Of a stretch of DNA of 64,000 nucleotides, positions 1,205 through 56,951 are shown one piece after another (within the stretch, counting starts at the first letter, position 1; every line of letters starts with the position of its first letter). The stretch lies in contig CANPPW010000001.1 of assembly GCA_947576095.1 (NCBI GenBank), positions 5,109 to 69,108 on the forward strand. Reading direction: 5' to 3'. The translations under genes and the position numbers were made by a program. Source of the DNA: an uncultured Mycoplasmatota bacterium. GTDB lineage: Bacteria; Bacillota_I; Bacilli_A; RF39; UBA660. Under the pieces are notes generated by a model, which saw only the letters and a list, made by a program, of their open reading frames with translations, had not been told where the DNA came from and did no database searches.

Positions 1205-1225
1205 AATTTACTTTTTTTTAAGAAT

Positions 1226-1253
1226 GTGTTAAGGTTTTTTTAACACTTTTTTT
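1226..1253 (+). terminator. putative intrinsic terminator or attenuator after the RR gene
   Basis: GTGTTAA-ggttttt-TTAACAC stem followed by a T run. Confidence 0.45.
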
Positions 1254-1281
1254 ATACAATAATTTAGGAAGGAGTAATATT

Positions 1282-2196: not shown

Positions 2197-2197
2197 A

Positions 2198-3034: not shown

Positions 3035-3051
3035 AGAGGTAGAAGGGGATT

Positions 3052-4599: not shown

Positions 4600-4765
4600 A
4601 AGAATCCCCCTAATAATGTATATTATAACATTTTTCTTATATTTGTAAAGTGGGATAATGCCAAAACGGGTTACTATAAATGATGTAAAATGATTAGAAA
4701 TATAATTCAAAACTTTTGAATTGCAAGAATATAAGTGATATAATAAAAGTGGTAAGGTGTTTAAA

Positions 4766-11672: not shown

Positions 11673-11746
11673 TCTTATTTTATCAAATTTTGAAAAAAAT
11701 AGATAGGTATGATATAATGAAACAAAATAAAGTAGGTGAGTAGTGT

Positions 11747-12634: not shown

Positions 12635-12647
12635 AAGGGAGAAGAGT

Positions 12648-13358
12648 ATGTTTACATTTGAATCAAAGAAAGAATATGAAAAGTTTATAGAATATCTATT
12701 TTCTCTGCAGGATATCAAATATAAGAATTTTCACCAAGGTCTTTTTAAAGAAGATATAACCTTGATTGGGGTTCGAACACCTCAGCTTAAAAGAATAGCG
12801 AAAGAGATTGCCAAACAAGATTTTCATCAATTTTTAAAATATAATACACATACATATTATGAAGAATCAGTTTTACATGGTTTAGTAATTGGATATTTAA
12901 AGTATGATATTAAAGATATTTATTCATATATATTGGATTTTCTACCATTTAATACAAATTGGGCGATCAATGATATTACTTGTGCTAATTTGAAAATATT
13001 TAAAAAAAATCAGAAAAATGGACTTTTTTTGATCTATAAATTATTAAAAAATAAAAATCCTTGGTATATCAGATTTGCATTAGTTCTTTTACTTGATCAT
13101 TATTTAGAAGAAGTTTATTTGGATGTCATCTTTGAAATCTGTGATGCGATTATTGATACATCATATTATGTTTTGATGGGAGAAGCTTGGCTTTTATCTA
13201 CATGTTTTATAAAATATCCTGAAAAAACTAAACTATATTTAAAAGATAGTAAAATAAATCCATGGGCGTATAACAAAACAATATCCAAAATATGTGATTC
13301 ATATAGAGTCTCAAGAAAAGAGAAGGAGCAAATTAGAAATTATATATGTAAAGTATAA
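12648..13358 (+). CDS. DNA alkylation repair (AlkD/AlkC-like HEAT-repeat) protein
   Basis: PF08713-like helical repeat pattern; RBS AAGGGAGAAG before MFTFESK. Confidence 0.5.
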   Translation: MFTFESKKEYEKFIEYLFSLQDIKYKNFHQGLFKEDITLIGVRTPQLKRIAKEIAKQDFHQFLKYNTHTYYEESVLHGLVIGYLKYDIKDIYSYILDFLPFNTNWAINDITCANLKIFKKNQKNGLFLIYKLLKNKNPWYIRFALVLLLDHYLEEVYLDVIFEICDAIIDTSYYVLMGEAWLLSTCFIKYPEKTKLYLKDSKINPWAYNKTISKICDSYRVSRKEKEQIRNYICKV

Positions 13359-13423
13359 TTTTATTATACAATTATATATAGTCAAAAAAACGCAATTCTA
13401 TCATATATTTTATTGGTGATATT

Positions 13424-14170
13424 ATGAGTGATACAATGTATAGCTTCATATTAACTTTATTTGCTGGATTCTCTACACTTTTAGGATCTTTACTTTTACT
13501 TTTGAAATTAAAACAAAAAGAAAATATCATTGTAGCATCTTTAAGTTTTGCAGCAGGTGTTATGATTTGTGTTTCTTTTATTGAACTCATTCCTGAAGGG
13601 TTCAAGATGATTCATTACACATATAATCCCTTTTTTTCTTTTTTATTAGTTCTTTTACTTATTAACATAGGTATAATTGTATCTAGTATTTTAGATCATT
13701 TTACAGTAAGTAAGCAAAATCATCTATATAAAGTAGGTATTATTTCTATGTTAGCTATTATTATGCATAATATTCCTGAAGGTATTGCTACTTTTTTAGC
13801 CGCCAATAATAATAGAAGTTTAGGACTTTCTTTGGCTATCGCAATTGCTTTTCATAATATTCCTGAAGGTATTGGTATTTCCATTCCAATTTATTATGCA
13901 ACCCAAAATAGAAAAAAAGCATTTTTTTATACATTAATTTCTGGTATCTCTGAACCTTTTGGTGCAATTTTGGCGTTTTTCTTTCTAAAAAATATAGTAA
14001 CTGATACAATTATGGGATTTATTTTCGCTTTTATTGCAGGTATTATGATTTATATTTCTGTTTATGAACTTTTAAAAGAAGTAAAAACCTATAAAAAAAG
14101 GAAAATCAATATTATATTTTTTATTATAGGAATATTATTTATGACATTTAATCATCTATTTTTTGGATAA
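13424..14170 (+). CDS. zupT: ZIP-family zinc transporter
   Basis: two HNIPEG motifs, 8 TM. Confidence 0.8.
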   Translation: MSDTMYSFILTLFAGFSTLLGSLLLLLKLKQKENIIVASLSFAAGVMICVSFIELIPEGFKMIHYTYNPFFSFLLVLLLINIGIIVSSILDHFTVSKQNHLYKVGIISMLAIIMHNIPEGIATFLAANNNRSLGLSLAIAIAFHNIPEGIGISIPIYYATQNRKKAFFYTLISGISEPFGAILAFFFLKNIVTDTIMGFIFAFIAGIMIYISVYELLKEVKTYKKRKINIIFFIIGILFMTFNHLFFG

Positions 14171-16679: not shown

Positions 16680-17312
16680 CTATATACCAAGTATTTCTAA
16701 TACCTTACTAAGCACCTCTGGTAAAATAAATGCCTCATATGCATTCATCAATAGACAACCCACTACACAGATTAAAAACACCCATAAATATTTATATAAA
16801 ATATACTTAAAATCAATTGCTTTCTTTTTTACAAAACAATCTACTAGTTTTAGAGAAAGCGTAATCGCATAATTTAATAAAACAATATAAATACAAATAG
16901 TAATAACCCCATGTGGAAAATAATATAAAAATGATAAAAGACATCCTTTCATTTTCCAGTTTAGAATAAAATTTGAAATAGAAAATCCAATTACAAACAT
17001 TTTAGAAAAATAAAGAAAAAGCATAATAGGAACTCCTATAACAGATATTCCTAAAAGCCAAATTCCTCCTAAAAATAAAAAAGTCTGAAATGTTGTTTGT
17101 ATATAACTTCTAAAAGATCCTATTTTATGCTGTTTTATATTTATGATAAATTCATTCATATATTCACGAATAAGTGTTTTATCTGCATCTTGTAATAAAA
17201 TTGTATAAAATGTACCCAATGCAATCCCAATGATTGCTAATCCAACTAGAAAATATACAACTTTTTTATTTACAGTTACTGTCTGTTTGAGCTTGTCCCA
17301 ATTTTTCTTCAT
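16680..17312 (-). CDS. spoIIM: stage II sporulation protein M-like membrane protein
   Basis: 5-TM protein; LLGISVIGVPIMLFLYFSKMFVIGFSISNFIL...GCLLSFLYYFPHGV aligns with the B. subtilis SpoIIM core. Confidence 0.6.
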   Translation of the reverse strand: MKKNWDKLKQTVTVNKKVVYFLVGLAIIGIALGTFYTILLQDADKTLIREYMNEFIINIKQHKIGSFRSYIQTTFQTFLFLGGIWLLGISVIGVPIMLFLYFSKMFVIGFSISNFILNWKMKGCLLSFLYYFPHGVITICIYIVLLNYAITLSLKLVDCFVKKKAIDFKYILYKYLWVFLICVVGCLLMNAYEAFILPEVLSKVLEILGI

Positions 17313-17485
17313 ATTATCACCTACCAAATTATATGGAACCCTATTTAAAAATATTCCTATATTTTCCATATTTTATAATAGATAAAAAAGGATATGATAA
17401 CAGATTCTAATGTAAAGAATATTTTTTAATTGTGTAAACTATTCCCTTTTTATAAAAAAAACGCTATAATAAAATTGGTGATAGT

Positions 17486-19432
17486 ATGAGTAATAAAAAG
17501 GAAAAAAATATAAAAAAAGATAGAGAAATAGATTTGGGTACCTATGTACCAGAAAGTATGATGGATCATTTGCGACAAAAAGGAAGCAGTGACTCTAATT
17601 ATAAAAGCCACCAGTTCCCTTTAGATACAGAATATTCAAATTCTAGAAAAGGGATGGAAAATATATTGTTTTTTCTAGTTATCCTTATGTTTCTAGTAGC
17701 TTGTGTTTTTTTTGGATATACAATTATAATTGGTCCAAATGATATCAAACAATTAGAACACATAATCAATAGCACTTGGCTTCTTATCTTAAGTGCAAGT
17801 ATGATGATGAGTTATATAACCAAAAACAAAAAAACAAAAAAAATAGGGACCTTTCTCTCCTCTGTTCTGATGATTGGTTTTATTAGTTTTAACCTATTGT
17901 TAAATTGTGGGATAGTCATTCTTAAACAAAATGATGTCATGAAAGACTTTACAGGAAAAACAATCACAGAAGCCATGGCATGGGCTGAAAAACATAATAT
18001 CACAATTAATCAAACATATGATAATAGCGAAGTGTTTGAAACATATGATATTATCAAACAAGATGTCTATCCAAATACACTTTTAAAAAATGTTAAAGAA
18101 ATTAATTTTGTTATTTCGGATGGTCCAGATTATGAAAAGGAAGTTTCTATAACAGATATGACAGGTTGGAATATTGATGAAGCTGTAAAAATTATTGATG
18201 AAAATTTTCTAAACCATGTTACAGTAGAGTTTGAAGAAAATAAAGAGATTTCACGTGATACCATCCTATCACAAAGTAAAAAAGGAATTATGAAGAGAAA
18301 TGAAGAGCTTATATTAAAAGTTTCGCTGGGAACTAAAGATAATATTACAGATATTGATATGATTAATCTAAAAAAAATGACAGAGTTTAAAGCCTTATTA
18401 TGGTTAAAAAGAAATGATATTCCCTATGAAATTAAAAGAGAATTTTCAGATACAATTGCTAAAGGAAAAGTTATATGTCAGGATGTTAAAACAGGAACAA
18501 CTATAAATCATGATACCACTGTTCATTTAACTATTTCGAGAGGGAAAAAAATTATTGTTCCCGACTTAACTAAAATGAACAGTAAAAATATTACCAATTG
18601 GATTGTAAAAAACAAATTAAAAGTAGAGTTTGAAGAAAAATATGATACAAAAATAAAAAAAGGAAATATTATAAGTACAAATTATAACAAAAATGATGAA
18701 ATTGAAGAAGGAACTACTATTCATATTGTATTATCAAAAGGGAAATTGATTTTACCAGGTTTTTCAAATCTAGATGATTTTAGAAATTGGGCAAAACAAT
18801 ATAATATTCTATATCGTGAAGAATATAAGCAAGATAAAAATATTAAAAAAGGAGAGATTATCGGTTTTTCTGCAAAAGAAGGAGATTCGCTGGATATAAA
18901 TGATACAATTGTGGTATATATATCTAGTGGCACTACTACAGTTATTCCTAACTTTGTTGGAATGAAAAAAGCAGATATTGAAAAGAAATGTCAAGATTTG
19001 AAAATACAATGTACATTTTATTATGCTGGTACAAGTACTAAAGATAGAGATATTGCATTGAACCAAAATAAAAAAGCAGGATCTGAAGTTCTACAAGATA
19101 CATATGTAAATATAGGACTTAGCACAGGAAAAAAGAATTCTAATAACACTAATGTAAATACTTCTCCTGTAAAACCAACAACTCCGCCTCCTTCTACTCC
19201 AACACCAGCACCTTCTTGTAAACAAAAAACGATCTATTTGAATGCTGGAGGTAGCGTAGATCAAACCAAAGCAATGATTAAAAATCAAAATCCTGACTTC
19301 AAATTTAATTTTGTAACAGGAGATCCAGGATATGGAACAAATGGATCTTTATATGCTGGTATGTTTGAAAAATATCAAGGTAAGACATTTAGTACATGTG
19401 ATACAATTACTATTTATATTGTTTCAAGATAA
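17486..19432 (+). CDS. polytopic membrane protein with about 6 tandem PASTA-like repeats, a Pro/Thr linker and a C-terminal domain; no kinase or PBP domain
   Basis: 3-4 TM then repeated roughly 65-aa units (e.g. VPDLTKMNSKNITNWIVKNKLKV); PTTPPPSTPTPAPS linker. Confidence 0.65.
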   Translation: MSNKKEKNIKKDREIDLGTYVPESMMDHLRQKGSSDSNYKSHQFPLDTEYSNSRKGMENILFFLVILMFLVACVFFGYTIIIGPNDIKQLEHIINSTWLLILSASMMMSYITKNKKTKKIGTFLSSVLMIGFISFNLLLNCGIVILKQNDVMKDFTGKTITEAMAWAEKHNITINQTYDNSEVFETYDIIKQDVYPNTLLKNVKEINFVISDGPDYEKEVSITDMTGWNIDEAVKIIDENFLNHVTVEFEENKEISRDTILSQSKKGIMKRNEELILKVSLGTKDNITDIDMINLKKMTEFKALLWLKRNDIPYEIKREFSDTIAKGKVICQDVKTGTTINHDTTVHLTISRGKKIIVPDLTKMNSKNITNWIVKNKLKVEFEEKYDTKIKKGNIISTNYNKNDEIEEGTTIHIVLSKGKLILPGFSNLDDFRNWAKQYNILYREEYKQDKNIKKGEIIGFSAKEGDSLDINDTIVVYISSGTTTVIPNFVGMKKADIEKKCQDLKIQCTFYYAGTSTKDRDIALNQNKKAGSEVLQDTYVNIGLSTGKKNSNNTNVNTSPVKPTTPPPSTPTPAPSCKQKTIYLNAGGSVDQTKAMIKNQNPDFKFNFVTGDPGYGTNGSLYAGMFEKYQGKTFSTCDTITIYIVSR

Positions 19433-19521: not shown

Positions 19522-22500
19522 TTATTTCTCTACAATCAATTCAATATTATTATTTTGGCTATTTAACATAAATGTATATATTTTCGTTCCTATCTTTTTT
19601 GAAAGATGTAACTGTCGATTCAGTAAATCTTTAAATTCTGCCACATCACTAATATTAGAAGCATTAGCTATATAAATTGTATATTTCCCTACCTCTAAAT
19701 CATTTAAATCAATTTGTTTTTCATACCAAGCCCTTGTTTTGTCAAGGTGATCAGAAACTGGAAGAGCAACAGCATAAGGGCCAGTTGTTATACTTCCTAT
19801 ATCATACTGATATTTTTTATAATTTTTTTGATTTTCAAAAATAATTTTTCTAATAACATTGGTATTACTAGCTAAATTACTACCATAAGAATAAGACGTT
19901 CCTTTTAAATATAATTGTCCATTTTCAGTAAAATGTAAATCTAAATATTGATCAAATTGATTATACGAATATGTAGCTGTGGTTCTATCTGCAATTTTTT
20001 CATTTCGAATAAGTAATTCTATTGGTGCTTCATTACTTGAATAATTATTACGGATAATAACATGTTTTTCTCCAGAAAATGATGTGGCTTGTGGAGCAAA
20101 TAACTTATTACTAACTGTAGATATTGCATAATAATTATCTGTTTCTGAAATAATATACATCTTATAATTGCCTTCAGGAACCTTTTTTAAATCAAATTGA
20201 AACTTAAACCATGAGTATGTGTAATCTTTTCCATCCTCACTAAATACTGGCATAGTCATATCCTTTGGATCTGTAATTCTTGTAGCAATTTGTTCATGTA
20301 AAACTTGATTGGTATTTATATCTACAAATTGAATACGATAATTTATTTTTGTAGATAATACATTGTCAATTCCTAAAATTGCATGATAGCCTTTTATTTC
20401 CAATTTTTCACCTATCTGCTTTATATAATCTAAATAATATGATGCCTTTTTTTGCTGCTTTACTTTTTCTACCACTTCAACATTGATCGTTTTTGAAATC
20501 TCTTGATTTGCTGAATCCACTACTTTATAAGTTACTAAATATTTCCCCAATTGAGTTGTATCAACTGAATTTTCTATAACTTCGATTTTTTCAATTGTAC
20601 CATCTTCTTTATCCGTTGCTGTTACATAATCAAGCGGGTTAAATGTGCTATTTTTTGCAATTTTAACATCTTCTGCATATATAACAGGTTTTTCATTTTC
20701 TATCACTTGAACATTTATAGTTTTTGTTACACTTTTTCCTGTACTATTGGTAACTTTATAAGTAATTTTATAACTACCAATTTTATTTATATCCACTGTA
20801 TTTTCAACAATTTGTATATGATTAGAAATATCCCCATCAATTGCATCTTTAGCTGACACATTTTTCTTAGGATCAAATGAAGTATATTGTGAGATTGATT
20901 GATCTTGGGCATTTATTTCTGGAATTGAATCTCCCATTACAGTTACTGTAATAGTCTTACTTACTTTAAAATGTTGATGATCTTCTGCTGTATAAGTAAT
21001 TTTATATTCACCAGGAATATTGATATATACTTCTCCGCTGATAGTAATACTAGATGTTATATCGCCATTTTCAGGATCATTTGCTAATACACCTAATAAC
21101 AAATCAATATTTTCACCTTTATGAATAACTCTATCATTAGCAATAATAGTTGGTTGAGCGTTTGTTACATACAAATCTTTTTCTTCTATATAACCATAGC
21201 TTTTATCAAAGCGATACTCTGCTGTTGTAATATTTTGTTGATCATCTAAAGAGGCATCAGAATAAACCTTATACCAATATTTTCCATTTTGATATATCTT
21301 ATCAGTTACTATCACAGGTATATTTTTCACACTATAATTAGCATTCTTTAATAAATATATTGTCTCAGCTTGATCTGATGGTTGTTTTTTTATCGGAACA
21401 TTATCAAAGGATGCTTTAATTCCAATCGTACTTCCCTGCCACTCCTGAAGTCCAAAATCTTTATCAGCTGCATAAGCGTTAGAAGCCATTTTTTCACCCC
21501 AATAAGGGTCTGTAGCATATTTTACATTCATTCCACTAGATTTATTTCCATAATGGCCTCCATAGTATCTGTTATCAGTTGGATTATTAAATCCAGCTCC
21601 TGTCATACTAGCATGCATCATGATACTATCTGCTACTGTATTATAATATGTAGCATTGGCTAAGGGATTATTACCATAAGCATTATGTCCAAAAAGATTA
21701 TTTTTTTGCATAGCAATTGCACTCGATCCAGTGGCACTTTCATTTACTGCTGCAGAAAAAGTTAATAATGCATTTACACCAAAACGCTCTTGGCTCAAAA
21801 TAAAATTTGCACCTTCTCCATACATCTTAGAATCACTTGGGCTTTTAAATCCCTTATTTATAACAATTTGATTAAAATCATTCGCTGTATAACTTGTACG
21901 ACTATGATTAGAAAGATACAAGTAATAAGGATAATATGGCCCTCTTGCGTTTATAGAATGATCATATGTATTATTTCGATAATCAGATAACATGGTATTC
22001 AAATCTTCATAATAATAGTTTCCATCAAAACTATAATACATTCTATTAGATGCTAAAAATGATGGAGCCTTTCCTAAATTTGTAACTCCTTGTGTAGATG
22101 CTGTAGCAAAATAGTGACGTAATTCACCATCAGAAACCTTATAATATGTTTTTAATGGAATGGTACTAATTTTATACCATGTAAGTCCCCCTGTTTTTTT
22201 TACATCTATGTATGTATAAATAGAACCTTTACTAGAATACCCAATCGCACTATATTGAGTACCAGGTCCCGTTCGAATTGTGATATTAGTATTGGAATTT
22301 TGTTGAATTCTAGAATTTCCAATTTCTTGGAACCATGTAGAATCTTGGCTAGATACCCAACTTTCTCCTCCATAAAGACGTGATACTGGAACAACTGTAT
22401 AATATCCTCTGTTAATCCAGCCCGTGTAACCACTAACCTTTACTTTGGCTCTACCCTTCCCACCAACATTTGGTTCGTAATCCAAAAAAGCAGCATCATT

Positions 22501-22863
22501 TCCATAAGCAGCATGAATAGTGGTATAAGCAGCACTATCAGTTGCATTTTGAAACAATCTATGTTCATTATTGGGATTTTCAGCAAAAGGATGAGCAGTA
22601 TCATAAAGAAAACGCACTATAGCATATTTAGCATTTATGATTTCTCCCCCCTCTTTTATCACCGCCACGTGCTGAGAATCTGAAGAATGTTCTAACATAA
22701 CTTTTTTAGCTTGATTATAGTCACTATATTTACCAATAGGTTGTTCACTACCATTGCTATTTACAACGGAAACCTCATAGGGGCCCATTGCTTTTGCATT
22801 TCCCAAAAAAAGGAAAAAAACTATGCTAATTAATAATATAAAACTTCTATTTTTCCACTTCAT
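19522..22863 (-). CDS. secreted 1113-aa cell-wall hydrolase: GH73 N-acetylglucosaminidase domain plus multiple Ig-like domains
   Basis: signal peptide MKWKNRSFILLISIVFFLFLGNAKA; glucosaminidase-like block ...NALLTFSAAVNESATGSSAIAMQKNNLFGHNAYG; Big-like repeats. Confidence 0.7.
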   Translation of the reverse strand: MKWKNRSFILLISIVFFLFLGNAKAMGPYEVSVVNSNGSEQPIGKYSDYNQAKKVMLEHSSDSQHVAVIKEGGEIINAKYAIVRFLYDTAHPFAENPNNEHRLFQNATDSAAYTTIHAAYGNDAAFLDYEPNVGGKGRAKVKVSGYTGWINRGYYTVVPVSRLYGGESWVSSQDSTWFQEIGNSRIQQNSNTNITIRTGPGTQYSAIGYSSKGSIYTYIDVKKTGGLTWYKISTIPLKTYYKVSDGELRHYFATASTQGVTNLGKAPSFLASNRMYYSFDGNYYYEDLNTMLSDYRNNTYDHSINARGPYYPYYLYLSNHSRTSYTANDFNQIVINKGFKSPSDSKMYGEGANFILSQERFGVNALLTFSAAVNESATGSSAIAMQKNNLFGHNAYGNNPLANATYYNTVADSIMMHASMTGAGFNNPTDNRYYGGHYGNKSSGMNVKYATDPYWGEKMASNAYAADKDFGLQEWQGSTIGIKASFDNVPIKKQPSDQAETIYLLKNANYSVKNIPVIVTDKIYQNGKYWYKVYSDASLDDQQNITTAEYRFDKSYGYIEEKDLYVTNAQPTIIANDRVIHKGENIDLLLGVLANDPENGDITSSITISGEVYINIPGEYKITYTAEDHQHFKVSKTITVTVMGDSIPEINAQDQSISQYTSFDPKKNVSAKDAIDGDISNHIQIVENTVDINKIGSYKITYKVTNSTGKSVTKTINVQVIENEKPVIYAEDVKIAKNSTFNPLDYVTATDKEDGTIEKIEVIENSVDTTQLGKYLVTYKVVDSANQEISKTINVEVVEKVKQQKKASYYLDYIKQIGEKLEIKGYHAILGIDNVLSTKINYRIQFVDINTNQVLHEQIATRITDPKDMTMPVFSEDGKDYTYSWFKFQFDLKKVPEGNYKMYIISETDNYYAISTVSNKLFAPQATSFSGEKHVIIRNNYSSNEAPIELLIRNEKIADRTTATYSYNQFDQYLDLHFTENGQLYLKGTSYSYGSNLASNTNVIRKIIFENQKNYKKYQYDIGSITTGPYAVALPVSDHLDKTRAWYEKQIDLNDLEVGKYTIYIANASNISDVAEFKDLLNRQLHLSKKIGTKIYTFMLNSQNNNIELIVEK

Positions 22864-25507: not shown

Positions 25508-26110
25508 TTAACCTTCTTTCTTCTTTGAGTAAATACACCCACAATAATTTTGTCTATATAAGTGATAGATAGAAGACAACTCTATAGATCTTTTATATCC
25601 ATCTTTCTTTTTAAAATCAGCAAACAAATAAGAAATACCATACTGATTTGCCAATTTCTGTCCAATTTCATTTAATTTATCTGCATTTTTATAGGGACTA
25701 ATAGATAAAGTTGTTGTAAAATAATCATATCCGTTTTCTTTTGCAAAACATGCTGTCTGATTCATTCGCAGTTCATAACAACGAAAGCAACGAATGCCTC
25801 CTTCTGGCATTTCCCTAAAAGATTCAATTGTTTTTTCAAATAAATTATTTTCATATGGAGCTTTCACTGTTTTAACATTTAGCTTCATCTTTTCAATCAA
25901 CTTTTCTAATTCATCGTACCTTTTATTAAATTCTGTTTCAGGCGATATATTAGGGTTGTAATAATAAATGGTAATATCAAAATAATCGCATAGCTTTTCT
26001 AGCACTGCACTACTACAAGGTGCACAGCAAGCATGTAATAATAATCTCTTTTTCCCTTTCAAAGCAAGAATTTGAGATTCCATTTTTTGTTGATAATTTA
26101 CTTTCATCAT
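25508..26110 (-). CDS. queH: epoxyqueuosine reductase QueH (DUF208)
   Basis: LLLHACCAPCSS and YYYNPNI motifs; start overlaps the stop of the rhomboid gene. Confidence 0.7.
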   Translation of the reverse strand: MMKVNYQQKMESQILALKGKKRLLLHACCAPCSSAVLEKLCDYFDITIYYYNPNISPETEFNKRYDELEKLIEKMKLNVKTVKAPYENNLFEKTIESFREMPEGGIRCFRCYELRMNQTACFAKENGYDYFTTTLSISPYKNADKLNEIGQKLANQYGISYLFADFKKKDGYKRSIELSSIYHLYRQNYCGCIYSKKKEG

Positions 26111-27249
26111 TAAATTCCAATAAGTGCCAAATATCCAATAAACACTACATATATTATTAAAACAATCCAACCATTGATTTTTTCAAAAGTAGAACTTTTA
26201 TATTTGACACCTAATGCCATGGTTGATAAAACCCCACCTACAAGTCCCCCAATATGGGCTGCATTATCAATACCAGAAATGAAAAAACCAATTCCTAAAT
26301 TTAATAAAATTAATGGTATAATTTGTGACTTTATAACCGTTCCTAAATAAACTCTATAATAAAATCCAAAGTATAAAAGAGAACCCAATAATCCAAAGAT
26401 AGCACCAGATGCTCCAAGCGAAGCGGAACTATCCCCCATAAAAATCATAGATAAAAAACTACCACATATACCACTTATCATATAAACAAATATATATTTC
26501 CATTTTCCCAAAAATCCTTCTAATTGCGAACCTATAATATAAAGTGCATACGCATTACATAGAAAATGTAATAAATGATAATGCAAGAAAAAACTTGTTA
26601 TAATTCTATAATATTCTCCTGTAATATGAACACGATTTACTAGAAATAGACTTTCTACAAAATGATCATCTAGTTTAGCAAGTAAAAACAAAAATATATT
26701 GATAGCTAACAAAACATAAGTAATAATCGGTGTTTTGGGTTTAAATACATCTTCATTCTTTTTCGCTTCCACTTCACTTTTTTGATTAATATCACTTGTG
26801 AGTTTTATAAAAAGTTCTGCTCCCTTTTCATCAAAATTTGTTTCATTTAAAATTGCTGGGAAAGCATTTTTTATAAAATCATTTTGCTGTAAGTCATCCA
26901 TGGATTCCAACTGAATACAATCAATACTTTTCATCTGCATCTTTTCTATTCTTTTAACATTTTCACCAAGATTTACAAAAATACTTAAAGTGTGCAAATC
27001 AAAGGAAATTGTTTTCTTTTTAATTTTTTTTAATATGTGTTTTGTTCTAAATAAATCATACTGAAATTGTTCATCATTATGAATATAATTAGAAACAATT
27101 CGAATAATTTTATAGTTTTCTTCTAAATTTTCTAACCAAATTTCATTTTGAGCACCATGGAGAATAATAGGAGTATACCCTTCCCCAATAAAATAGTGTA
27201 AAAGTTTCATAACAAGTTCATCTGTTTTTCCAATAATAATGTTATTCAT
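26110..27249 (-). CDS. rhomboid-family intramembrane serine protease with N-terminal cytoplasmic domain
   Basis: GASGAIFGLLG (catalytic Ser) and AHIGGLVGG (His) in a 6-TM core. Confidence 0.8.
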   Translation of the reverse strand: MNNIIIGKTDELVMKLLHYFIGEGYTPIILHGAQNEIWLENLEENYKIIRIVSNYIHNDEQFQYDLFRTKHILKKIKKKTISFDLHTLSIFVNLGENVKRIEKMQMKSIDCIQLESMDDLQQNDFIKNAFPAILNETNFDEKGAELFIKLTSDINQKSEVEAKKNEDVFKPKTPIITYVLLAINIFLFLLAKLDDHFVESLFLVNRVHITGEYYRIITSFFLHYHLLHFLCNAYALYIIGSQLEGFLGKWKYIFVYMISGICGSFLSMIFMGDSSASLGASGAIFGLLGSLLYFGFYYRVYLGTVIKSQIIPLILLNLGIGFFISGIDNAAHIGGLVGGVLSTMALGVKYKSSTFEKINGWIVLIIYVVFIGYLALIGI

Positions 27250-27294
27250 GTAATCACCTTCATTATCTATTGTATCATACTTTTATGTATTGTC

Positions 27295-28191
27295 CTAACT
27301 GTTTTTAAAGGTTTCTAATATGTCAAGAAAAGAAGAAGGAAGTGGGCTTTCAAAATGAAGATATTCCTTAGTTCTAGGGTGAATGAATCCCAGTTCTTTA
27401 GCATGTAAACATTGTCCTGTTTCATCTAAAATTTTTCTTTTTCCATAAACAGGATCATTCACAATCGGATGATTAATATATTGCATATGCACTCTAATTT
27501 GATGTGTTCTTCCTGTTTCTAGTTGAAGTTCTAAAAGCGTGGCTGTTTTGTATCTTTCAAGTACTCTAAAATGAGTAATAGCAGATTTGCTATTTACTGC
27601 TGTTACTTTCATTTTTTTTCGATCCTTTTCATCTCGTCCAATAGGAGCATCAATCGTTCCTGTATCATGTGGAATCACTCCATGTACAAGAGCAATATAT
27701 TTACGATATGTGGTTTTCTCTTCCAATTGTTTTGCTAAAAAATGATGTGCTTCATTGTTTTTAGCTATCATTAGAAGACCTGTGGTATAAGCATCTATTC
27801 GGTGAACAATACCAGGACGAAAGACCCCACCTACATTGCTTAAATTTTTTGCATGATATAAAAGTGCATTTACAAGTGTTCCTTTGGGATTCCCAGCACC
27901 AGGATGCACAACCATTCCGTTTGGTTTATCAACTACTATAACATCTTCATCCTCATAAATAATCGTAAATGGTATATTCTCAGGAATCACATTTATTTCC
28001 TCTTCACAATACTCCCCTATAGTAATCATATCACCACTTTTCAAAGAATAGCTATTTTTTACAGTACCATTATTAACTAAGATTGCTCCATTCTCAATCA
28101 TTTTTTGAATTTTAGCGCGACTCATTCCCAGTTCATTTTTAAAAAAAAGATCAATTCTTCCTTTATCCTCTACAAGCTTTATTGTTTCCAT
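27295..28191 (-). CDS. rluD: 23S rRNA pseudouridine synthase, RluA/RluD family
   Basis: S4 domain N-terminus, HRIDAYTTGLLMIAKN catalytic motif. Confidence 0.85.
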   Translation of the reverse strand: METIKLVEDKGRIDLFFKNELGMSRAKIQKMIENGAILVNNGTVKNSYSLKSGDMITIGEYCEEEINVIPENIPFTIIYEDEDVIVVDKPNGMVVHPGAGNPKGTLVNALLYHAKNLSNVGGVFRPGIVHRIDAYTTGLLMIAKNNEAHHFLAKQLEEKTTYRKYIALVHGVIPHDTGTIDAPIGRDEKDRKKMKVTAVNSKSAITHFRVLERYKTATLLELQLETGRTHQIRVHMQYINHPIVNDPVYGKRKILDETGQCLHAKELGFIHPRTKEYLHFESPLPSSFLDILETFKNS

Positions 28192-28640
28192 GTTTCCCCT
28201 CCTTTATGCCAATTATAATCATGAATAAAACAGAAATTACAATCATTATATCTGCAAAATTAAAAATAGGATAATTATAACTACCTATATTAAAATCCAA
28301 AAAGTCAATAACAAATCCACGTAAAAGTCGATCTATAAAATTGCCAAAAATTCCACCCAATAAAGATCCATAAATCATTTGCTCTATTTTTGACAATTTA
28401 GCATTTTTTAAAAACAATTGATAAATAAGTACTACTGCTATAACAGTTACTAGTAATAAAAAGATTTGATTCCCCGAAAAAAGACTCCATGCAGCCCCCT
28501 CATTTCTCACATAGGTAATTCGAAAAAAAGATGGAATAATAGTAATGGACTGTCCTACATATAATTTTTGGGTAATAATCCATTTTATCATTTGATCTAT
28601 TATTAAAACTAAACCTGCAAAAATAAAAGTTTTTTTCACG
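28163..28640 (-). CDS. lspA: lipoprotein signal peptidase II (GTG start)
   Basis: NEGAAWS and FNFAD motifs; GGTGA RBS; extended -10 TGgTATAAT at about 28656-28664. Confidence 0.8.
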
Positions 28641-28721
28641 TATATCACCAAATAAATTATACCAAATTTTAAAAAAAAATAAAAGATATCCAATTCTTTT
28701 ACTTTTATATATTGTAAATTT

Positions 28722-50395: not shown

Positions 50396-51667
50396 TTATG
50401 GTGACTTATAATCAAATTCATAATCTAAAATTCTAACGGTATCACCATCTACAGCACCTAAACGCCTCAACTCATCATCAACACCCAATCGCTTTAAGCG
50501 ATTTGAAAACCTTAATACAGATTCATCTGTTGAAAATTTAGTCATTTGAACAATTTTTTCGATTTGTTTTCCTTTAAGAATCCATGTGTGATTTTCTTTA
50601 GTGACTGTAAATGGACGTTCTTCTTTAAATTGATAAAGAATATGACTTTCAAATTTTTCTTCTTCATAAAGTGCTTTTTTTGGAATTTTTTCTAATAAAT
50701 CTGCAAGAGCATTTAAAACTTTATCAATTCCATCATTTTCAACTGCTGAAATTGGATAAACAGGTATATTTACTTTTTTTTGAAATTCCACCAAGTATTT
50801 TTTAGAAGATGGAATATCCATTTTGTTTGCGATTACAATTTGTGGCTTTTCCATAATTTGAGAATTGAATGCCTCTAATTCTTTATTAATTGTGATAAAA
50901 TCCTGATATGGATCACGTCCTTCGTATCCACTCATATCAATAACATGGGCGATGACTCTTGTTCTTTCAATATGCTTTAAAAACCGATCCCCAAGACCAG
51001 AACCTAAAGATGCACCTTCTATAAGGCCAGGAAGATCTGCTACTACAAATGTCCGATGATTTGCTCTTACAACCCCTAAATTGGGTTTTAATGTTGTAAA
51101 ATGATATGGTGCTATTTTAGGTTTTGAGGCAGATATTTTAGAAATGAGCGTGGATTTGCCAACACTTGGCATTCCCACTAAACCTACATCTGCTAATAGT
51201 TTTAGTTCTACTTTGATTTTTCGTTTTTCCCCTGGTTCCCCATTTTCAGCATAACTAGGTGCGGGATTATTATGTGTAGCAAAAGCTATATTTCCTCTTC
51301 CTCCACGTCCCCCATACGCTACGCAGACTTCTTCTCCTTTATGTGTTAAATCAGCAATAACATATCCTGTATCAAAATCAGTAATAATAGTACCTGCAGG
51401 CACTCTTACAAAAACATTTTCAGCATTTTTCCCATGCATACCTTTCCCCTGGCCATTTTCTCCTCGATTTCCTCTAATTATTTTTTTATAACGCAAATCT
51501 AATAAAGTGTTTAATCCTTCATCCACTTGAAAAATAATGTCAGATCCCTTTCCACCATTACCACCTGCAGGGCCTCCCATTTCTATATATTTTTCTCTAC
51601 GAAAAGCCATACATCCATTTCCACCAGATCCAGCTTCTAATTCTAATTGTACTTCATCTACAAACAT
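50396..51667 (-). CDS. obg: GTPase Obg
   Basis: Gly-rich Obg fold N-terminus, G1-G4 motifs (GMPSVGKST, DLPG, NKMD). Confidence 0.9.
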   Translation of the reverse strand: MFVDEVQLELEAGSGGNGCMAFRREKYIEMGGPAGGNGGKGSDIIFQVDEGLNTLLDLRYKKIIRGNRGENGQGKGMHGKNAENVFVRVPAGTIITDFDTGYVIADLTHKGEEVCVAYGGRGGRGNIAFATHNNPAPSYAENGEPGEKRKIKVELKLLADVGLVGMPSVGKSTLISKISASKPKIAPYHFTTLKPNLGVVRANHRTFVVADLPGLIEGASLGSGLGDRFLKHIERTRVIAHVIDMSGYEGRDPYQDFITINKELEAFNSQIMEKPQIVIANKMDIPSSKKYLVEFQKKVNIPVYPISAVENDGIDKVLNALADLLEKIPKKALYEEEKFESHILYQFKEERPFTVTKENHTWILKGKQIEKIVQMTKFSTDESVLRFSNRLKRLGVDDELRRLGAVDGDTVRILDYEFDYKSP

Positions 51668-51808
51668 AATATCCCCCCCTTTTTATAGGCGTTCTTTATA
51701 TATTATACTAAAAAACAAACAATATGTACAGAGTTCCTAATAAGAACCTATTTCTATCTTTCAATATTTAAATCAATTGCGTTTTTTACTATATAATTAT
51801 AAAAGTGT

Positions 51809-51840
51809 AAAAATAAAAAAAGAAACGAATATTCATTTCT
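51809..51840 (-). terminator. intrinsic terminator after the Hpt-REC gene
   Basis: AGAAATGAATATTCGTTTCT palindrome followed by a T run on the minus strand. Confidence 0.5.
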
Positions 51841-51841
51841 C

Positions 51842-52642
51842 TTAATGAAAGTTAATCATTGAAGTTACAACCCTTTTCACATCACGTTCATTAAAAGGTT
51901 TTGTCAGTACATCTACAATAGGATATGTAAATGCTTTAAGAGCTGTTTCTTTAGAATCATCTCCTGTAATAATTGCTACTGGGATTTTAGCAAATAAATT
52001 ATTTTGTTTAAAATAATCTAATACTGTAAATCCATTTATATTAGGCATATTCAAATCAAGAAGTATACCATATAATTTTACACCAGGGTTGCTTTCTAAA
52101 AAAGCCAAAGCTTCTCTTCCATCAGCTGCTGCAATCACTTCAAATTCTTCATCAAATATTTTTTGAATTAAATTACGTATAACATTGGAATCATCTACAA
52201 CTAAAATCTTTTTGTCTTTAATAGTTTCCTTTGACGAAGAAACGACAGAAGTCACTTTTTCTTTTCCTAAATATTGCCCCAATAATTGCAAAATTCGATC
52301 TGTTTCATTCATAAGTTCATCATAATGTTCATATATAAACATAACATCATTTTCTTTACTATGCATTTCATGAGCAAAAGAAATTTCTGCTAATTTTGTA
52401 AAACCTAGATACTTTGCATCACTTTTCAAAGAATGAACTAAAATAGCATAATTGGGCATATCCGTTACTTCTTTATATTTCTGAATTTCACTTAACTTTT
52501 GGGTAATGGTTTCCAAAAAATCTTCTAGTGTTGAATCATAGGTTTCCATATCTCCAAAAAGTTCTAAACTCTGTTCAATATTTACTCCATTATTTTTTAA
52601 TAAATCTATATCCCTCATATTTTTCACATCCTCTATTATCAT
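51842..52642 (-). CDS. Hpt domain + receiver domain protein (no output domain)
   Basis: Hpt motif HSLKSDAKYLGF; receiver KILVVDD...ILLDLNMP...TKPF. Confidence 0.75.
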   Translation of the reverse strand: MIIEDVKNMRDIDLLKNNGVNIEQSLELFGDMETYDSTLEDFLETITQKLSEIQKYKEVTDMPNYAILVHSLKSDAKYLGFTKLAEISFAHEMHSKENDVMFIYEHYDELMNETDRILQLLGQYLGKEKVTSVVSSSKETIKDKKILVVDDSNVIRNLIQKIFDEEFEVIAAADGREALAFLESNPGVKLYGILLDLNMPNINGFTVLDYFKQNNLFAKIPVAIITGDDSKETALKAFTYPIVDVLTKPFNERDVKRVVTSMINFH

Positions 52643-52656
52643 TATAACACACTTCT

Positions 52657-54495
52657 CTATTTTTTTACTAAAAATCGCTGCAATACTCGATGCAATTCTA
52701 TTTTATCAATCGGTTTGGCAAGATAATCATCAAATCCAGCTTCCAAATATTTCTCTTTCATACCTGAAATAGCATTGGCTGTAAGTGCAATTGTCGGAAT
52801 CGAAAATGATGGAATTTCTTTTAACTTTACAAAGGTTTCACTACCACTCATTTGTGGCATCATATCATCAAGTAAAATTAGATCATATTTCTCTCCTTGC
52901 ATAATTTTATCCAAGCATTCCTGACCACTTATAGCAGTATCAATTTGGACATTATACTTTTTTAAAACCAATGATGCCACTTTTAAATTCATTTTGTTAT
53001 CATCCACAATTAAAATTCTCTTACCCTCTATATTTATATTTTCTTTTAAAGGTGTATCTTCTTTTACTACTTTTGTATCAACTACCTTTTGATCAATTGC
53101 AACAATAAATTTAGAACCTTTTCCATAAATACTTTGAACAACGATTTTCCCTTTCATAAGTTCCACAAGCCTTTTTGTAATTGCAAGTCCAAGACCAGTT
53201 CCTTCAATTGTGATATTCTTTTCTAGATCAAATCTTTCAAATTTAGAAAAGAGTTTGTGAATGTTACTTTCTTTAATTCCAATTCCACTATCTTCAACAG
53301 AAACAATAAGCCTGCAAACAGATCCTTGTTTTACAGAGTTTACACTAAATGCAATATACCCCTTTTTTGTATACTTCGCTGCATTGGTAAGCAAATTTAA
53401 AATAATTTGTTTCATCCTTGCATAATCTCCATATAAAGTACTTGGAATACTATTATCATAATGTAACCTAAATTCAATCGGTTTTTCGCCAATTCTTGTT
53501 CTAGTAAGTGAAACAAGTTCATCATATACTTTTTTAAAATGATACTCTGTGTTAACAATTTCTAATTTACCCGCTTCTATCTTAGAAATATCTAAAACAC
53601 CATTTACAATTTCTAAAAGAGTACTGGAAGCAACTACAATATCATTCACTCGATCTTTCGCATCCTCTGAAATTTTTTCATCTTTTAATGATTCACTAAA
53701 GCCAACAATTGCATTTAATGGAGTTCGAATTTCATGACTCATATTTGATAGGAATTCTGTCTTCGCTTTATTGGCTCGATCGGCCTGTTCCCTAGCTATG
53801 TTTAATTGTTCAATAAATTTGATATCTGGATTTTCGATTGTAAAAAAGGTTAAAACAGTAATAAAGGAAGCTGCCGAAGTAACAAGTAAAATTTGCGGAA
53901 ATAGAGCCTGAATTAATGCACTTGTACCAGCAAATACAATAAAAGAGAAAACAGGCAAATATTTTTTAGTTTTTACCTGATGGATATTTAAACAGACACA
54001 TATGCACCAAAAGATGAGACAAAGAAAAGTGATAAAATAACTAATTGTAGCACTAGGCCCATAAGTATACATACTTCTACCATCACTCCATACATATAAT
54101 GGCAATATAAAAATAAATATTCCTATCACGAAAAAAGCAATTAAAAGCAATATTAACATCTTTCTAAAATAGGCTAAATGCTCATTTTGACGAATAATAA
54201 TATGTTCTCGATTCCTTTTAGAAGAAATAACAAAAATATAATATGTAAAGATAAACACCCATAATATCAAACAAAACAAATACGCCTTTGTAAAAAAGGT
54301 AGTAATTCCTAAGGTAGGCATATGAATACCTAAATATACACTAATCATATCAATAATCAAATTTAGGACATTCATAAACATTAAACAAATATAAATACGA
54401 TTTTCTAAAGTATCCAATCGTTTCTTACAAAAATAAACACAAATAATTAAAATAACATAAAATAAACTTAAAGTTTGAAAAGACAAACTATTCAT
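52657..54495 (-). CDS. hybrid sensor histidine kinase: 6-TM N-terminal domain, HisKA, HATPase_c, C-terminal receiver
   Basis: MSHEIRTPLNAIVGF H-box, GTGLGLAITKRLVE G2 box, receiver KRILIVDDN...LILLDDMMP...AKP. Confidence 0.85.
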   Translation of the reverse strand: MNSLSFQTLSLFYVILIICVYFCKKRLDTLENRIYICLMFMNVLNLIIDMISVYLGIHMPTLGITTFFTKAYLFCLILWVFIFTYYIFVISSKRNREHIIIRQNEHLAYFRKMLILLLIAFFVIGIFIFILPLYVWSDGRSMYTYGPSATISYFITFLCLIFWCICVCLNIHQVKTKKYLPVFSFIVFAGTSALIQALFPQILLVTSAASFITVLTFFTIENPDIKFIEQLNIAREQADRANKAKTEFLSNMSHEIRTPLNAIVGFSESLKDEKISEDAKDRVNDIVVASSTLLEIVNGVLDISKIEAGKLEIVNTEYHFKKVYDELVSLTRTRIGEKPIEFRLHYDNSIPSTLYGDYARMKQIILNLLTNAAKYTKKGYIAFSVNSVKQGSVCRLIVSVEDSGIGIKESNIHKLFSKFERFDLEKNITIEGTGLGLAITKRLVELMKGKIVVQSIYGKGSKFIVAIDQKVVDTKVVKEDTPLKENINIEGKRILIVDDNKMNLKVASLVLKKYNVQIDTAISGQECLDKIMQGEKYDLILLDDMMPQMSGSETFVKLKEIPSFSIPTIALTANAISGMKEKYLEAGFDDYLAKPIDKIELHRVLQRFLVKK

Positions 54496-54523
54496 ATCAG
54501 CACCTACCTTACCTTCTTCTATT

Positions 54524-54552
54524 ATTATAACACGGAATTTTATGTTTGAAAA
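54524..54552 (-). promoter_or_regulatory. sigmaA promoter TTTTCA-N17-TGtTATAAT for the HK / Hpt-REC operon
   Basis: extended -10 plus -35 at 17-nt spacing upstream of the RBS GAAGGTAAGGTAGGTG. Confidence 0.4.
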
Positions 54553-54662: not shown

Positions 54663-55664
54663 TTAAAAAAGTTTGGGCATAAAATCCCATTGTTTTCGAT
54701 TTAAAAGTTTGACATGCTTCTCACAAGAAAGTCCTGTTACAGAATTTACATCTGGAATCAAATCATAAATATCGTCCTTATAAATATTCCCACTCATGCA
54801 AATTTTTTCTAATTCTTCGATAATATAAGCTCCCCTTATTAATGCCATTTCATATAAATCCATAAAAGTATAGTAAAAGTGTAGTGAGGCATCATAGGGA
54901 TTCACCCATTCTTCTCTTTTTTGATTTAAAAAAGGAATGGCTAGCTCTACATCTCTATGATAGGAAAAAGAAGATGCTCCATGGTAAATAGGATCAACTT
55001 TATCAAAAATTTTTTTCTTAATGCCATAATGATCATATTTAAATATTTTCATAAATAAAGCCATTTGATAAAAAGATTCATAAAATATCTCTCCACCTGA
55101 TACAAGTGCATATGTTTCTCTTAAACAATCATTTAATGTTTGAATTAAGGAATTAGAAATAATAGTTTTAGGTAAAGTAAAATCATGATAAACAGGATAA
55201 TGATTAGGATCTTTTTTCTCTATATGCTTCATCATATATATATCAATCAAGTTCTCTACACACCCATGGTGCCATGTATCAAAGGTAGCATCAGGAGTAT
55301 GATCTCCTGCATAGTAAATAATTAAAGGATGTAAATATGCATCCAGTAAATGATGCATAATATACCCAGGCCCAATAAATAATCTTACCTGTTCTTCTTC
55401 AAGGGCTCCACTACTGTGTGCTTGTTTTAAATAATTATAAACAAAAAGCTGAAAGTTTGTTTCCTGTAATAAAACAGAGGCATTTATATTATTATTCAAC
55501 TTTTTAGAACTCCATATTTTATAAAAATCATGATAAATAAGAAAGTCATGTCCCTGAGCAAAAATATTATATTGATCATAATGAGGAAATACAGCAAGCG
55601 TTTGGGCACTTAAATTTTTCTTTAATTGTTTATAAAAAATATCATGTGTTTTAGGTCCTGGCAT
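54663..55664 (-). CDS. zinc-dependent phospholipase C-fold family protein, cytoplasmic (no signal peptide)
   Basis: MPGPKTHDIF start, H/D-rich blocks (HYDQYNIFAQGHDF; GYIMHHLLDAYLHPLIIYYAGDHTPD) resembling Zn-PLC metal ligands. Confidence 0.4.
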   Translation of the reverse strand: MPGPKTHDIFYKQLKKNLSAQTLAVFPHYDQYNIFAQGHDFLIYHDFYKIWSSKKLNNNINASVLLQETNFQLFVYNYLKQAHSSGALEEEQVRLFIGPGYIMHHLLDAYLHPLIIYYAGDHTPDATFDTWHHGCVENLIDIYMMKHIEKKDPNHYPVYHDFTLPKTIISNSLIQTLNDCLRETYALVSGGEIFYESFYQMALFMKIFKYDHYGIKKKIFDKVDPIYHGASSFSYHRDVELAIPFLNQKREEWVNPYDASLHFYYTFMDLYEMALIRGAYIIEELEKICMSGNIYKDDIYDLIPDVNSVTGLSCEKHVKLLNRKQWDFMPKLF

Positions 55665-55669
55665 ATAAT

Positions 55670-56311
55670 TTACTGCCTCTCAACATTTCTTGATAAACTT
55701 TTAACTTTAGGTGATAAATTTGATGAAGAAAAATGAGATTTTAAATATTCATTTAGATATCTTTCTACAGAACCTTCATAAACAATATTAGAAGATAAGG
55801 CACCATAAATATCGAAAGGTCGTATATTATATGGTTCCACTCCCTCCAAAAGAGGAATACCACATTCTTTTAAAACAGTAGAGACCCACTGTGAACAAAA
55901 ATAACGATTTTTACTCTCCATTCCTTTTCCACATAATAACATTTTCATAAGACCTAAAAAGTTAAAACCATATTGTTCTCTATTTTCCCAAAAAAAATCC
56001 ATCATATCAGATATTTGTTGATATTCCTCCTTCATCACAGGTATTTCCATAACAGCAATTTGATTGAGAGAAGAATGAATTTGAAAAAGACCTTCTCGAA
56101 TATCTTCTTTAACCAATCCAGAATGAAAAGGATTATGAATCTCCTTACGAGCAAAAGACATCATATTATTTAAATGCTGATCTCTTGATAAAGAAATATG
56201 CGAATACTGAGCACCTGGATAAGGATTCCAAAATTTTAAAGCTGCCCTCGCTTTAATTAGCCTTCCAGGCCACGTGTATGTATAACTAGCTACCGCATAT
56301 ATATTTTCCAT
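55670..56311 (-). CDS. YiiX/YebB-like permuted papain-fold (NlpC/P60 superfamily) protein, cytoplasmic
   Basis: CSQWVSTVLKECGI Cys motif with a downstream His; no signal peptide. Confidence 0.3.
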   Translation of the reverse strand: MENIYAVASYTYTWPGRLIKARAALKFWNPYPGAQYSHISLSRDQHLNNMMSFARKEIHNPFHSGLVKEDIREGLFQIHSSLNQIAVMEIPVMKEEYQQISDMMDFFWENREQYGFNFLGLMKMLLCGKGMESKNRYFCSQWVSTVLKECGIPLLEGVEPYNIRPFDIYGALSSNIVYEGSVERYLNEYLKSHFSSSNLSPKVKSLSRNVERQ

Positions 56312-56327
56312 AATTCCCCCTTATAAT

Positions 56328-56951
56328 CTATTTATAACATTTTGTATTCACTTTTTCTAATGCTTCTGCATATGTATATTTTTTACCATCACAATAAATA
56401 TTCCCACCTACAAATTTAAGTTGTGAAATTGCAGATAAATTTGCCTTTTCAATATGAATATCTCCTACTACATAGGCAAGAGATGGTGGAAGTGTATCTT
56501 CAAAACTTATAAAATTTCCACCTACAAAACATAAACTTGATAATTTTTGAGGTTCTTTTAATGCTGCTACATTAAAGTCATCCCAAACAAGTTTAATATG
56601 TTCTAAAGACTCCTGTGGGGTTGTTATACTATATTGCAAAGTCCCTGTTACATACTGTGCCATACTATTGTCTTTCAGTTCATTTTCATCCCAAACAATA
56701 AGATTTTCATCACAATGCGTTATTTTAGAAATCATATTTTTTCTTCTACGTTTTTCACTTTGGACCATCACAGCATAAAATGCTGTTTCCTGCCAAAATT
56801 TAAGTACTAAAATTTGTTGTTTTAAAATATTAGGTTCACTATTTAATTGATCAAATATTTTCTCGACTGCTTCAAGTCTTTTTCTAAATATAGAATGCCT
56901 TTCTTTTTGTTTTAAATAACATAAATTTTCACATACTTTTGTTTCCATCAT
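56328..56951 (-). CDS. hypothetical protein with two C-terminal FVGGN-containing repeats
   Basis: repeats LCFVGGNFISFEDT / LKFVGGNIYCDG; RBS AGAGGAAAA. Confidence 0.35.
   Translation of the reverse strand: MMETKVCENLCYLKQKERHSIFRKRLEAVEKIFDQLNSEPNILKQQILVLKFWQETAFYAVMVQSEKRRRKNMISKITHCDENLIVWDENELKDNSMAQYVTGTLQYSITTPQESLEHIKLVWDDFNVAALKEPQKLSSLCFVGGNFISFEDTLPPSLAYVVGDIHIEKANLSAISQLKFVGGNIYCDGKKYTYAEALEKVNTKCYK

Follow-up and report, generated by a model that had tools for sequence, protein, structure and literature searches.

What is a hybrid histidine kinase with a phosphotransfer partner doing between rpmA and obg, the slot in which spo0B, the sporulation phosphotransferase gene, would be expected? 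The question is raised by a 64,000-nt stretch of one contig (CANPPW010000001.1) from an uncultured Mycoplasmatota bacterium, hereafter the window, in which two genes of this slot encode a membrane-bound hybrid histidine kinase (HK) and a protein joining a histidine phosphotransfer (Hpt) domain to a receiver (REC) domain, here called Hpt-REC. A preliminary description of this DNA read the pair as a possible non-orthologous replacement of Spo0B and Spo0F in a spore-former. The comparison with relatives leads to a different answer. Judged from sequence, it is well supported that the two genes encode a complete His-Asp-His-Asp relay in which all four phosphorylation sites are invariant, and it is probable (roughly 0.6) that they form a self-contained four-step phosphorelay cassette tied to membrane-lipid status or to lipid scavenging and remodelling. 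The genes of the region all lie on the minus strand, and the parts of the relay are encoded as follows:

52657-54495, minus strand: hybrid sensor histidine kinase, 612 aa (Pfam, 63-sequence alignment)
53836-54495, minus strand: kinase transmembrane sensor, residues 1-220
53569-53766, minus strand: kinase HisKA domain, with predicted phospho-His H254 (codon 53734-53736)
53089-53430, minus strand: kinase HATPase_c domain
52681-53016, minus strand: kinase receiver D1, with predicted acceptor D543 (codon 52867-52869)
51842-52642, minus strand: Hpt-REC open reading frame (ORF), 266 aa (Pfam, alignments)
52262-52618, minus strand: Hpt four-helix bundle, with H70 (codon 52433-52435)
residues 126-144 of Hpt-REC: disordered linker
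51848-52210, minus strand: Hpt-REC receiver D2, with D196 (codon 52055-52057)

Profile searches found all four expected domain types (HisKA, HATPase_c, Response_reg and Hpt), bearing out the six-helix hybrid kinase and the Hpt-REC fusion of the preliminary description. The kinase matches HisKA at 67.8 bits, HATPase_c at 85.3 and Response_reg at 79.4, and hydropathy places 6-7 transmembrane segments within residues 1-220. The 63 aligned kinases all have the H-box histidine H254 (SHEIRTPLN), and conservation extends to the N, G1 and G2 boxes and to D498/D499, D543, T572 and K594; column identity is 44% in the transmembrane region versus 75-83% in the cytoplasmic domains. Partial NCBIfam matches to TorS (326 bits), BarA (302), ArcB (288) and LuxQ (286) all fall below the cutoffs of those models. 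The Pfam scan found no PAS domain in the kinase and its membrane region matches no family model, which reduces the resemblance to KinB first suggested to a count of transmembrane segments.

The partner protein matches Pfam Hpt at 24.6 bits, exactly the cutoff, and Response_reg at 76.5 bits; scanned by itself, the N-terminal part reaches 27 bits for Hpt, and the corresponding domains of family members match the model in 21 cases out of 21 (best E = 4.6e-09). In 84 Hpt-REC sequences H70, K73, G80, D150, D151, D196 and K248 are invariant, and residue 226 is threonine in 81 and serine in three. The Hpt histidine (H70, within the motif HSLKS) and the receiver aspartates, which the preliminary description had singled out as decisive, are thus all present. 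An AlphaFold2 model (predicted local distance difference test, pLDDT, 82.6) consists of a four-helix bundle (helices 32-58, 62-79, 82-96 and 100-125), a disordered linker and a (beta-alpha)5 CheY-like receiver. Searched against the PDB, the Hpt family profile retrieved CheA P1, LuxU and HPt-domain chains, with H70 aligned to the CheA P1 phospho-His; no Spo0B entry appeared at E <= 10. A Foldseek search with the full model was swamped by receiver matches, to RR468, CheY and Spo0F-type receivers. By these profile and alignment criteria the N-terminal domain is a genuine Hpt domain and not a Spo0B-like one. No output domain follows the terminal receiver in any of the 84 family members. The true start of the protein is probably the ATG at 52618 (M9), which has GAGGA 10 nt upstream and would give 258 aa; 23 aligned homologues begin at a methionine equal to M9, 22 of them with MKD and one with MRD. 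Use of this start widens the gap from the kinase stop to 38 nt, rather than the 14 nt first reported.

That the two proteins work together is indicated by their relatives. Used as the sole query in a library-wide HMMER search, the Hpt domain retrieved 1734 relatives; many are HisKA-HATPase-REC kinases of 700-1040 aa with this Hpt at their very C-terminal end. One of these (P0150, 782 aa) aligns end to end with the window kinase, membrane domain included, at 41% identity, and its C-terminal Hpt is 56% identical to that of the window. The most similar kinases beyond the immediate relatives, those of loci L092 (55% identity) and L093 (58%), are likewise fused to Hpt. This single-polypeptide HK-REC-Hpt form, not present in the window, was met in P0150, L088, L092 and L093; a separate receiver gene (185-188 aa) follows the fused protein in L093 (185 aa) and L088, and L091 encodes HK-REC-REC-Hpt. 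Fusion of the same kinase to the same Hpt provides Rosetta-stone evidence that the two window proteins cooperate, evidence that bears on partnership only. The DNA order HK-REC-Hpt-REC is constant and only the positions of stops and starts shift, so that the Hpt-REC order, described at first as unusual, is a displaced gene boundary within an invariant array, marked in the window by the TAG stop at 52657 that separates the kinase receiver from Hpt. HK-RR-HPt-RR (RR, response regulator) occurs in one polypeptide in 982 proteins, HKRRHPt genes adjoin RR genes 10-50 times more often than expected by chance, and hybrid kinases make up <1% of two-component proteins in the low-GC (low guanine plus cytosine) Bacillus-class group (PMC4558063). 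The present family offers a clear natural case of a movable gene boundary inside a fixed H1-D1-H2-D2 array and, as far as its sequences indicate, the system is a genuine and intact four-step phosphorelay of known type, belonging to a lineage-specific and uncharacterised family. Hybrid-kinase/Hpt relays are, to our knowledge, uncommon in Firmicutes, where no function has been assigned to any of them.

A divergent relative of 23% GC (L085, 6001-8193; also L086 and L087) encodes a fused HK-REC-Hpt next to obg, with the H-box histidine replaced by cysteine (SCEISSSLN for SHEIRTPLN) and a degenerate G2 box. This kinase may be a pseudo-kinase that retains its REC, its Hpt and the downstream receiver.

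When one genome per species was scanned, Hpt-REC turned up in at least 145 species-level genomes. The carriers are all uncultured low-GC metagenome-assembled genomes labelled "Bacilli bacterium", "Tenericutes" or "Erysipelotrichaceae", among them CAG:460, CAG:609, CAG:1000, Ca. Onthocola and Ca. Faecisoma, and NCBI places them in Bacilli or Mycoplasmatota incertae sedis; we take them to be, probably, the GTDB order RF39. Identity across carrier genomes is 54-64% for Hpt-REC versus 55-70% for Obg, a closeness that marks Hpt-REC as a slowly evolving core gene and the relay as a core trait of a widespread, uncultured, genome-reduced gut lineage. Chance or an annotation artefact was rejected as the origin of the ORFs, which are conserved and stay open in metagenome contigs of the same species.

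The surroundings of the relay genes point to its likely purpose. Domain scans confirmed the flanks that had been described, with spoIVFA-like, spoIVFB-like, rplU, prp and rpmA genes upstream and obg downstream. The count of two genes in the slot was wrong: three further same-strand ORFs (orf207, orf213 and orf333), overlooked before, lie between rpmA and the kinase gene, which makes five genes in the rpmA-obg interval. The layout of the locus, from upstream to downstream, is:

58843-59535, minus strand: M23 gene, SpoIVFA-like (Pfam and NCBIfam scans)
58122-58763, minus strand: M50 site-2-protease-like gene, SpoIVFB-like, 213 aa (weak Peptidase_M50 match)
58020-58088, minus strand: L21 leader upstream of rplU (Rfam RF00559, 49.5 bits)
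57099-58002, minus strand: rplU, prp and rpmA (Pfam)
57100..57077, minus strand: rpmA terminator, preceding orf207
57061..57034, minus strand: strong promoter-like site before orf207 (consensus scan)
56328-56951, minus strand: orf207, first gene of the cassette, poorly conserved
55670-56311, minus strand: orf213, conserved protein, just upstream of orf333
54663-55664, minus strand: orf333, phospholipase C-like protein, immediately upstream of the kinase gene
54552..54524, minus strand: promoter-like site TTTTCA-17-TG-n-TATAAT upstream of the kinase gene (consensus scan)
51806..51843, minus strand: terminator-like hairpin of 11 bp, then a U-run, overlapping the Hpt-REC stop codon
51730..51702, minus strand: promoter-like site before obg (promoter scan)
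50396-51667, minus strand: obg (Pfam GTP1_OBG, 195.9 bits)

Beyond obg lie murC and then addB/addA. The terminator that the preliminary description assigned to the pair holds up well, as the hairpin right after the Hpt-REC stop has a folding energy of -9.2 kcal/mol (z = -3.36) that none of 200 shuffles equalled. The promoter assigned to the kinase gene fares less well: the site is present, but the region has 47 promoter-like sites against 46 expected from shuffles, making it a consensus match only, with a function suggested by its position. The M50 protease, at only 213 aa, retains the HELGH and NxxPxxPLDG motifs and, compared with B. subtilis SpoIVFB, appears to be without the C-terminal CBS domain.

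In 59 of 81 loci the kinase gene immediately precedes Hpt-REC. Of the 52 loci in which the gene before the kinase could be scored, 31 encode an AMP-binding ligase there and 13 a PlsC-type acyltransferase, at a median gap of 55 nt. The ligase is best matched by long-chain-fatty-acid-CoA ligase models, below their cutoffs, and in L008 it is accompanied by an HAD-PlsC protein that resembles the acyltransferase part of Aas. The sub-lineage of the window has orf213 and orf333 in place of the ligase or acyltransferase, and this exchange can be followed at a single chromosomal position, the mgsA-xerD-glmM site, which carries the ligase in L088 and orf213 with orf333 in L093. The product of orf333 is a predicted cytoplasmic protein with a zinc-dependent phospholipase C/P1-nuclease-like fold. 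That of orf213, always encoded just upstream of orf333, has an invariant H38 and C139 in its alignment and may be a permuted papain-like (YaeF/YiiX-type) enzyme, for which there are weak hints only (NCBIfam YaeF, E = 0.007; Pfam C92, E = 0.12). Homologues of orf207 occur in L001 (34% identity), L004 and L092, and Pfam and NCBIfam scans gave no convincing family for either orf207 or orf213. A small (~85 aa) divergent gene of the XRE helix-turn-helix type stands at the 5' edge of most cassettes (L019 5781-6035, minus strand, with ~30 other loci; L089 5616-5885, minus strand) and is absent from the window version.

In the mechanism that we propose, the kinase would sense solely through its 6-7-helix membrane domain and autophosphorylate at H254; the phosphoryl group would pass to D543 of its own receiver, then to the Hpt histidine H70 of the partner protein, and would end on D196 of the Hpt-fused receiver. 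With no output domain of its own, this terminal receiver would have to work by contacting other proteins, or else as a sink or buffer for phosphate. The genetic coupling to fatty-acid and phospholipid enzymes, combined with a sensor made of membrane helices only, suggests membrane-lipid status or lipid scavenging and remodelling as the most likely input or purpose. If this link is correct, it would give a clue to the way in which these auxotroph-like bacteria detect or handle lipids from the host.

The position of the cassette varies far more than its content. Among loci with enough flanking sequence (53 downstream, 54 upstream), obg lies within 3.5 kb downstream of the module in 5 of 53 and rpmA within 5.5 kb upstream in 3 of 54, so a survey of relatives for the rpmA-obg insertion places the module near either gene in only ~10% of species and away from both in ~90%. 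The loci in which it lies between rpmA and obg (the window, L001, L009, L016, L027 and L055) are rpmA-linked and form one clade of the neighbour-joining tree; further linkages to obg are scattered (L036, L080, L008 and the divergent L085 lineage). The interval itself holds nothing in L008, Hpt-REC alone in L027, Hpt-REC directly after rpmA with two unrelated genes in L009 and L016, and a ligase, the kinase, Hpt-REC and the same two genes in L055. As possible Spo0B genes, the ORFs that separate Hpt-REC from obg in L009, L016 and L055 were rejected: on inspection of their sequences they resemble genes for a small membrane protein and an aminopeptidase. The orf213-orf333-kinase cassette of the window recurs at two other sites: between lspA-rluD and TspO/rhomboid in L092, and after mgsA-xerD-glmM in L093, where L088 also carries its kinase cassette. 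Both sites are empty in the window:

10446-14170: empty mgsA-xerD site, with mgsA (minus strand), an xerD-like gene, then DNA_alkylation and Zip genes; cassette absent
26110-28693: empty lspA-rluD-rhomboid site; cassette absent

The cassette has therefore moved as a unit among at least three sites. Given these several sites and the company of lipid enzymes, the rpmA-obg position is probably one of several landing sites and probably not evidence of a role in sporulation.

Several observations weigh against the lipid-linked cassette as we propose it. The promoter-like site between orf333 and the kinase gene leaves co-transcription with the lipid-enzyme genes unproven, and Hpt-REC is found without an adjoining kinase in ~20% of loci. 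The highly conserved alpha4-beta5-alpha5 face of the terminal receiver implies a partner protein. The model also does not explain the recurrent proximity to obg (the window clade, L036, L080, L008 and L085) or to spoIIIAH-gerE-gerM-like genes in eight loci, in which a lone gene for a SpoIIIAH-like protein and genes for a small GerE/LuxR-type regulator and a Germane (GerM-like) protein follow Hpt-REC immediately (L049 10842-12611, L089 7336-9076, and likewise in L013, L022, L039, L050, L060 and L067).

Another proposal is that the relay initiates sporulation: the kinase receiver would serve as Spo0F, the Hpt domain as Spo0B and Spo0A as target, and the fused receiver would be a sink or modulator. 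The premise that spo0B lies between rpmA and obg agrees with the literature, which places Spo0B without exception between L27 and Obg (PMC6136694), and an orphan Hpt-REC is the sole gene of this interval in L027 and follows rpmA directly in L009 and L016, while the divergent L085 lineage has the order HK-REC-Hpt, REC, obg. The SpoIIIAH-GerE-Germane association spans several deep branches, Hpt-REC is roughly as conserved as Obg, and the histidines and aspartates needed for the relay are in place. RF39 is predicted to form spores under regulation "markedly different" from that of Erysipelotrichales (PMC10868615), and the portion of its supplement covered here has no spo0A, spo0F or spo0B entries; the window has a SpoIIM-like gene (16680-17369, minus strand, 51 bits) as well as the SpoIVFA-like and SpoIVFB-like genes. 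RF39-type Bacilli appear to be without Spo0F, Spo0B and Kin kinases, and two cultured relatives, Erysipelatoclostridium and Turicibacter, are without Spo0F and Spo0B, Turicibacter also without KinA-E, which leaves the activation of their Spo0A unexplained. Several observations speak against this proposal. Most species carry it away from the slot, the same cassette occupies two other sites that are empty here, and its dominant neighbours are lipid enzymes. The Hpt domain has no sequence match to Spo0B: none of the five slot genes matched the Pfam SPOB_a or SPOB_ab models, and a tblastn search with B. subtilis Spo0B found no match in the window and 84 loci (1.34 Mb). The same search with B. subtilis Spo0A, Spo0A-C and Spo0F returned generic receiver matches only, a result that covers the module flanks and says nothing on Spo0A in the rest of the genomes. 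Both receivers are fused, rather than stand-alone as Spo0F is, and the receiver encoded in cis right after Hpt is the obvious cognate acceptor; the fbaA, CTP synthase and transaldolase genes that mark the Spo0F neighbourhood (PMC6136694) occur in no locus. The kinase is a hybrid that adjoins its partner, unlike the known sporulation kinases, which are orphan, non-hybrid and often contain PAS domains. The Spo0A box TGTCGAA has four matches in this DNA, a number not above chance, and none of them is close to the cassette. A replacement of Spo0B and Spo0F defined by position is thus not upheld, and a sporulation-initiation relay is improbable. We give equally little credence to a version in which the Hpt relay succeeded the sporulation phosphorelay in function, with Spo0A receiving a membrane or lipid signal by way of Hpt and the fused receiver as a tunable sink, of which the recurrent obg/rpmA and spoIIIAH-gerE-gerM linkages would then be a trace. 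For the activation of Spo0A in the Erysipelotrichales/RF39 branch the cassette is a testable candidate, not a favoured one.

A branched relay is a less remote proposal, though still an unlikely one. Here the Hpt domain would mainly serve an unlinked DNA-binding regulator other than Spo0A, and the fused receiver would be a competing phosphate sink that shapes the response. This would suit a terminal receiver that is without an output domain in 84 of 84 family members, and wiring of the many-to-one or one-to-many type is suggested by the orphan Hpt-REC loci and by L026, where a separate Hpt-REC accompanies a fused HK-REC-Hpt; the small XRE-type gene that flanks many cassettes would also fit. Yet a DNA-binding response regulator is a conserved neighbour in none of the ~90 loci, and conservation is strong over the entire receiver surface, which favours a specific effector over a passive sink. 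Decay is a reading that the conservation data effectively refute: the loss of the H-box histidine and the degenerate G2 box in L085-L087 would fit a non-functional remnant in a permissive intergenic site, but every catalytic motif is kept in the window and 62 other kinases, and Hpt-REC is under purifying selection comparable to Obg, with frames intact among conspecifics. The self-contained, lipid-linked cassette is preferred over these alternatives.

Other genes of the window include what looks like a Bce-like transporter-coupled two-component module (536-3936, plus strand: an OmpR-type response regulator, an ABC ATPase, an ABC-2 permease and a 294-aa histidine kinase), from which it follows that the genome has other, conventional two-component systems. 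A 648-aa protein (17486-19432, plus strand) has five PASTA repeats, and its N-terminal ~350 residues gave no Pfam kinase or transpeptidase match at E <= 0.001, which is unusual for PASTA proteins. Two large surface proteins with bacterial Ig-like domains (19522-22863, minus strand; 4757-6166, plus strand) are also encoded, one fused to a glucosaminidase and the other to a polysaccharide deacetylase.

The relay can be set beside several known systems. The B. subtilis KinA-E/Spo0F/Spo0B/Spo0A relay has the same four-step His-Asp-His-Asp flow, and its spo0B slot is occupied by the module in the window and a minority of relatives. In B. subtilis, however, Spo0F is stand-alone near fbaA, the kinases are orphan and the relay ends on a DNA-binding protein, Spo0A; the phosphotransferase Spo0B is dimeric and DHp-like, unlike the monomeric-type Hpt bundle of the window. 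ArcB-ArcA, BarA-UvrY, TorS-TorR and EvgS-EvgA share with the window both the H1-D1-H2-D2 scheme and the order of domains on the DNA, and the ArcB/BarA/TorS layout of HK-REC-Hpt plus a REC gene is found exactly in the orthologues L088, L092 and L093. Unlike these, the relay of the window has its gene break ahead of Hpt rather than behind it, a final receiver devoid of a DNA-binding domain and a sensor that lies wholly in the membrane, and it comes from a host of the low-GC Bacillus-class group. LuxQ-LuxU-LuxO, RcsC-RcsD-RcsB and Sln1-Ypd1-Ssk1 likewise pass phosphoryl from a hybrid kinase to an Hpt on another polypeptide, a likeness echoed in the LuxQ score of the window kinase (286 bits) and in LuxU among the PDB matches of the Hpt profile, whereas in the window Hpt and final receiver form one protein, which has no domain for transcriptional output. 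For the sensing of lipid state, DesK-DesR of B. subtilis may serve as a functional analogy, homology not being claimed: DesK senses membrane fluidity with transmembrane helices only and is linked to a lipid-modifying enzyme, although the system is a simple two-component one of the HisKA_3 type with a DNA-binding regulator, unlike the relay of the window. For the output, the Caulobacter CckA-ChpT-CtrA/CpdR pathway offers a parallel. Its phosphotransferase ChpT is HisKA-like and not an Hpt, its components are unlinked and it has no association with lipid enzymes, but there too a hybrid kinase feeds a phosphotransferase, whose targets include the receiver-only protein CpdR, which acts by protein-protein contact, a precedent for a terminal receiver without an output domain such as that of the window.

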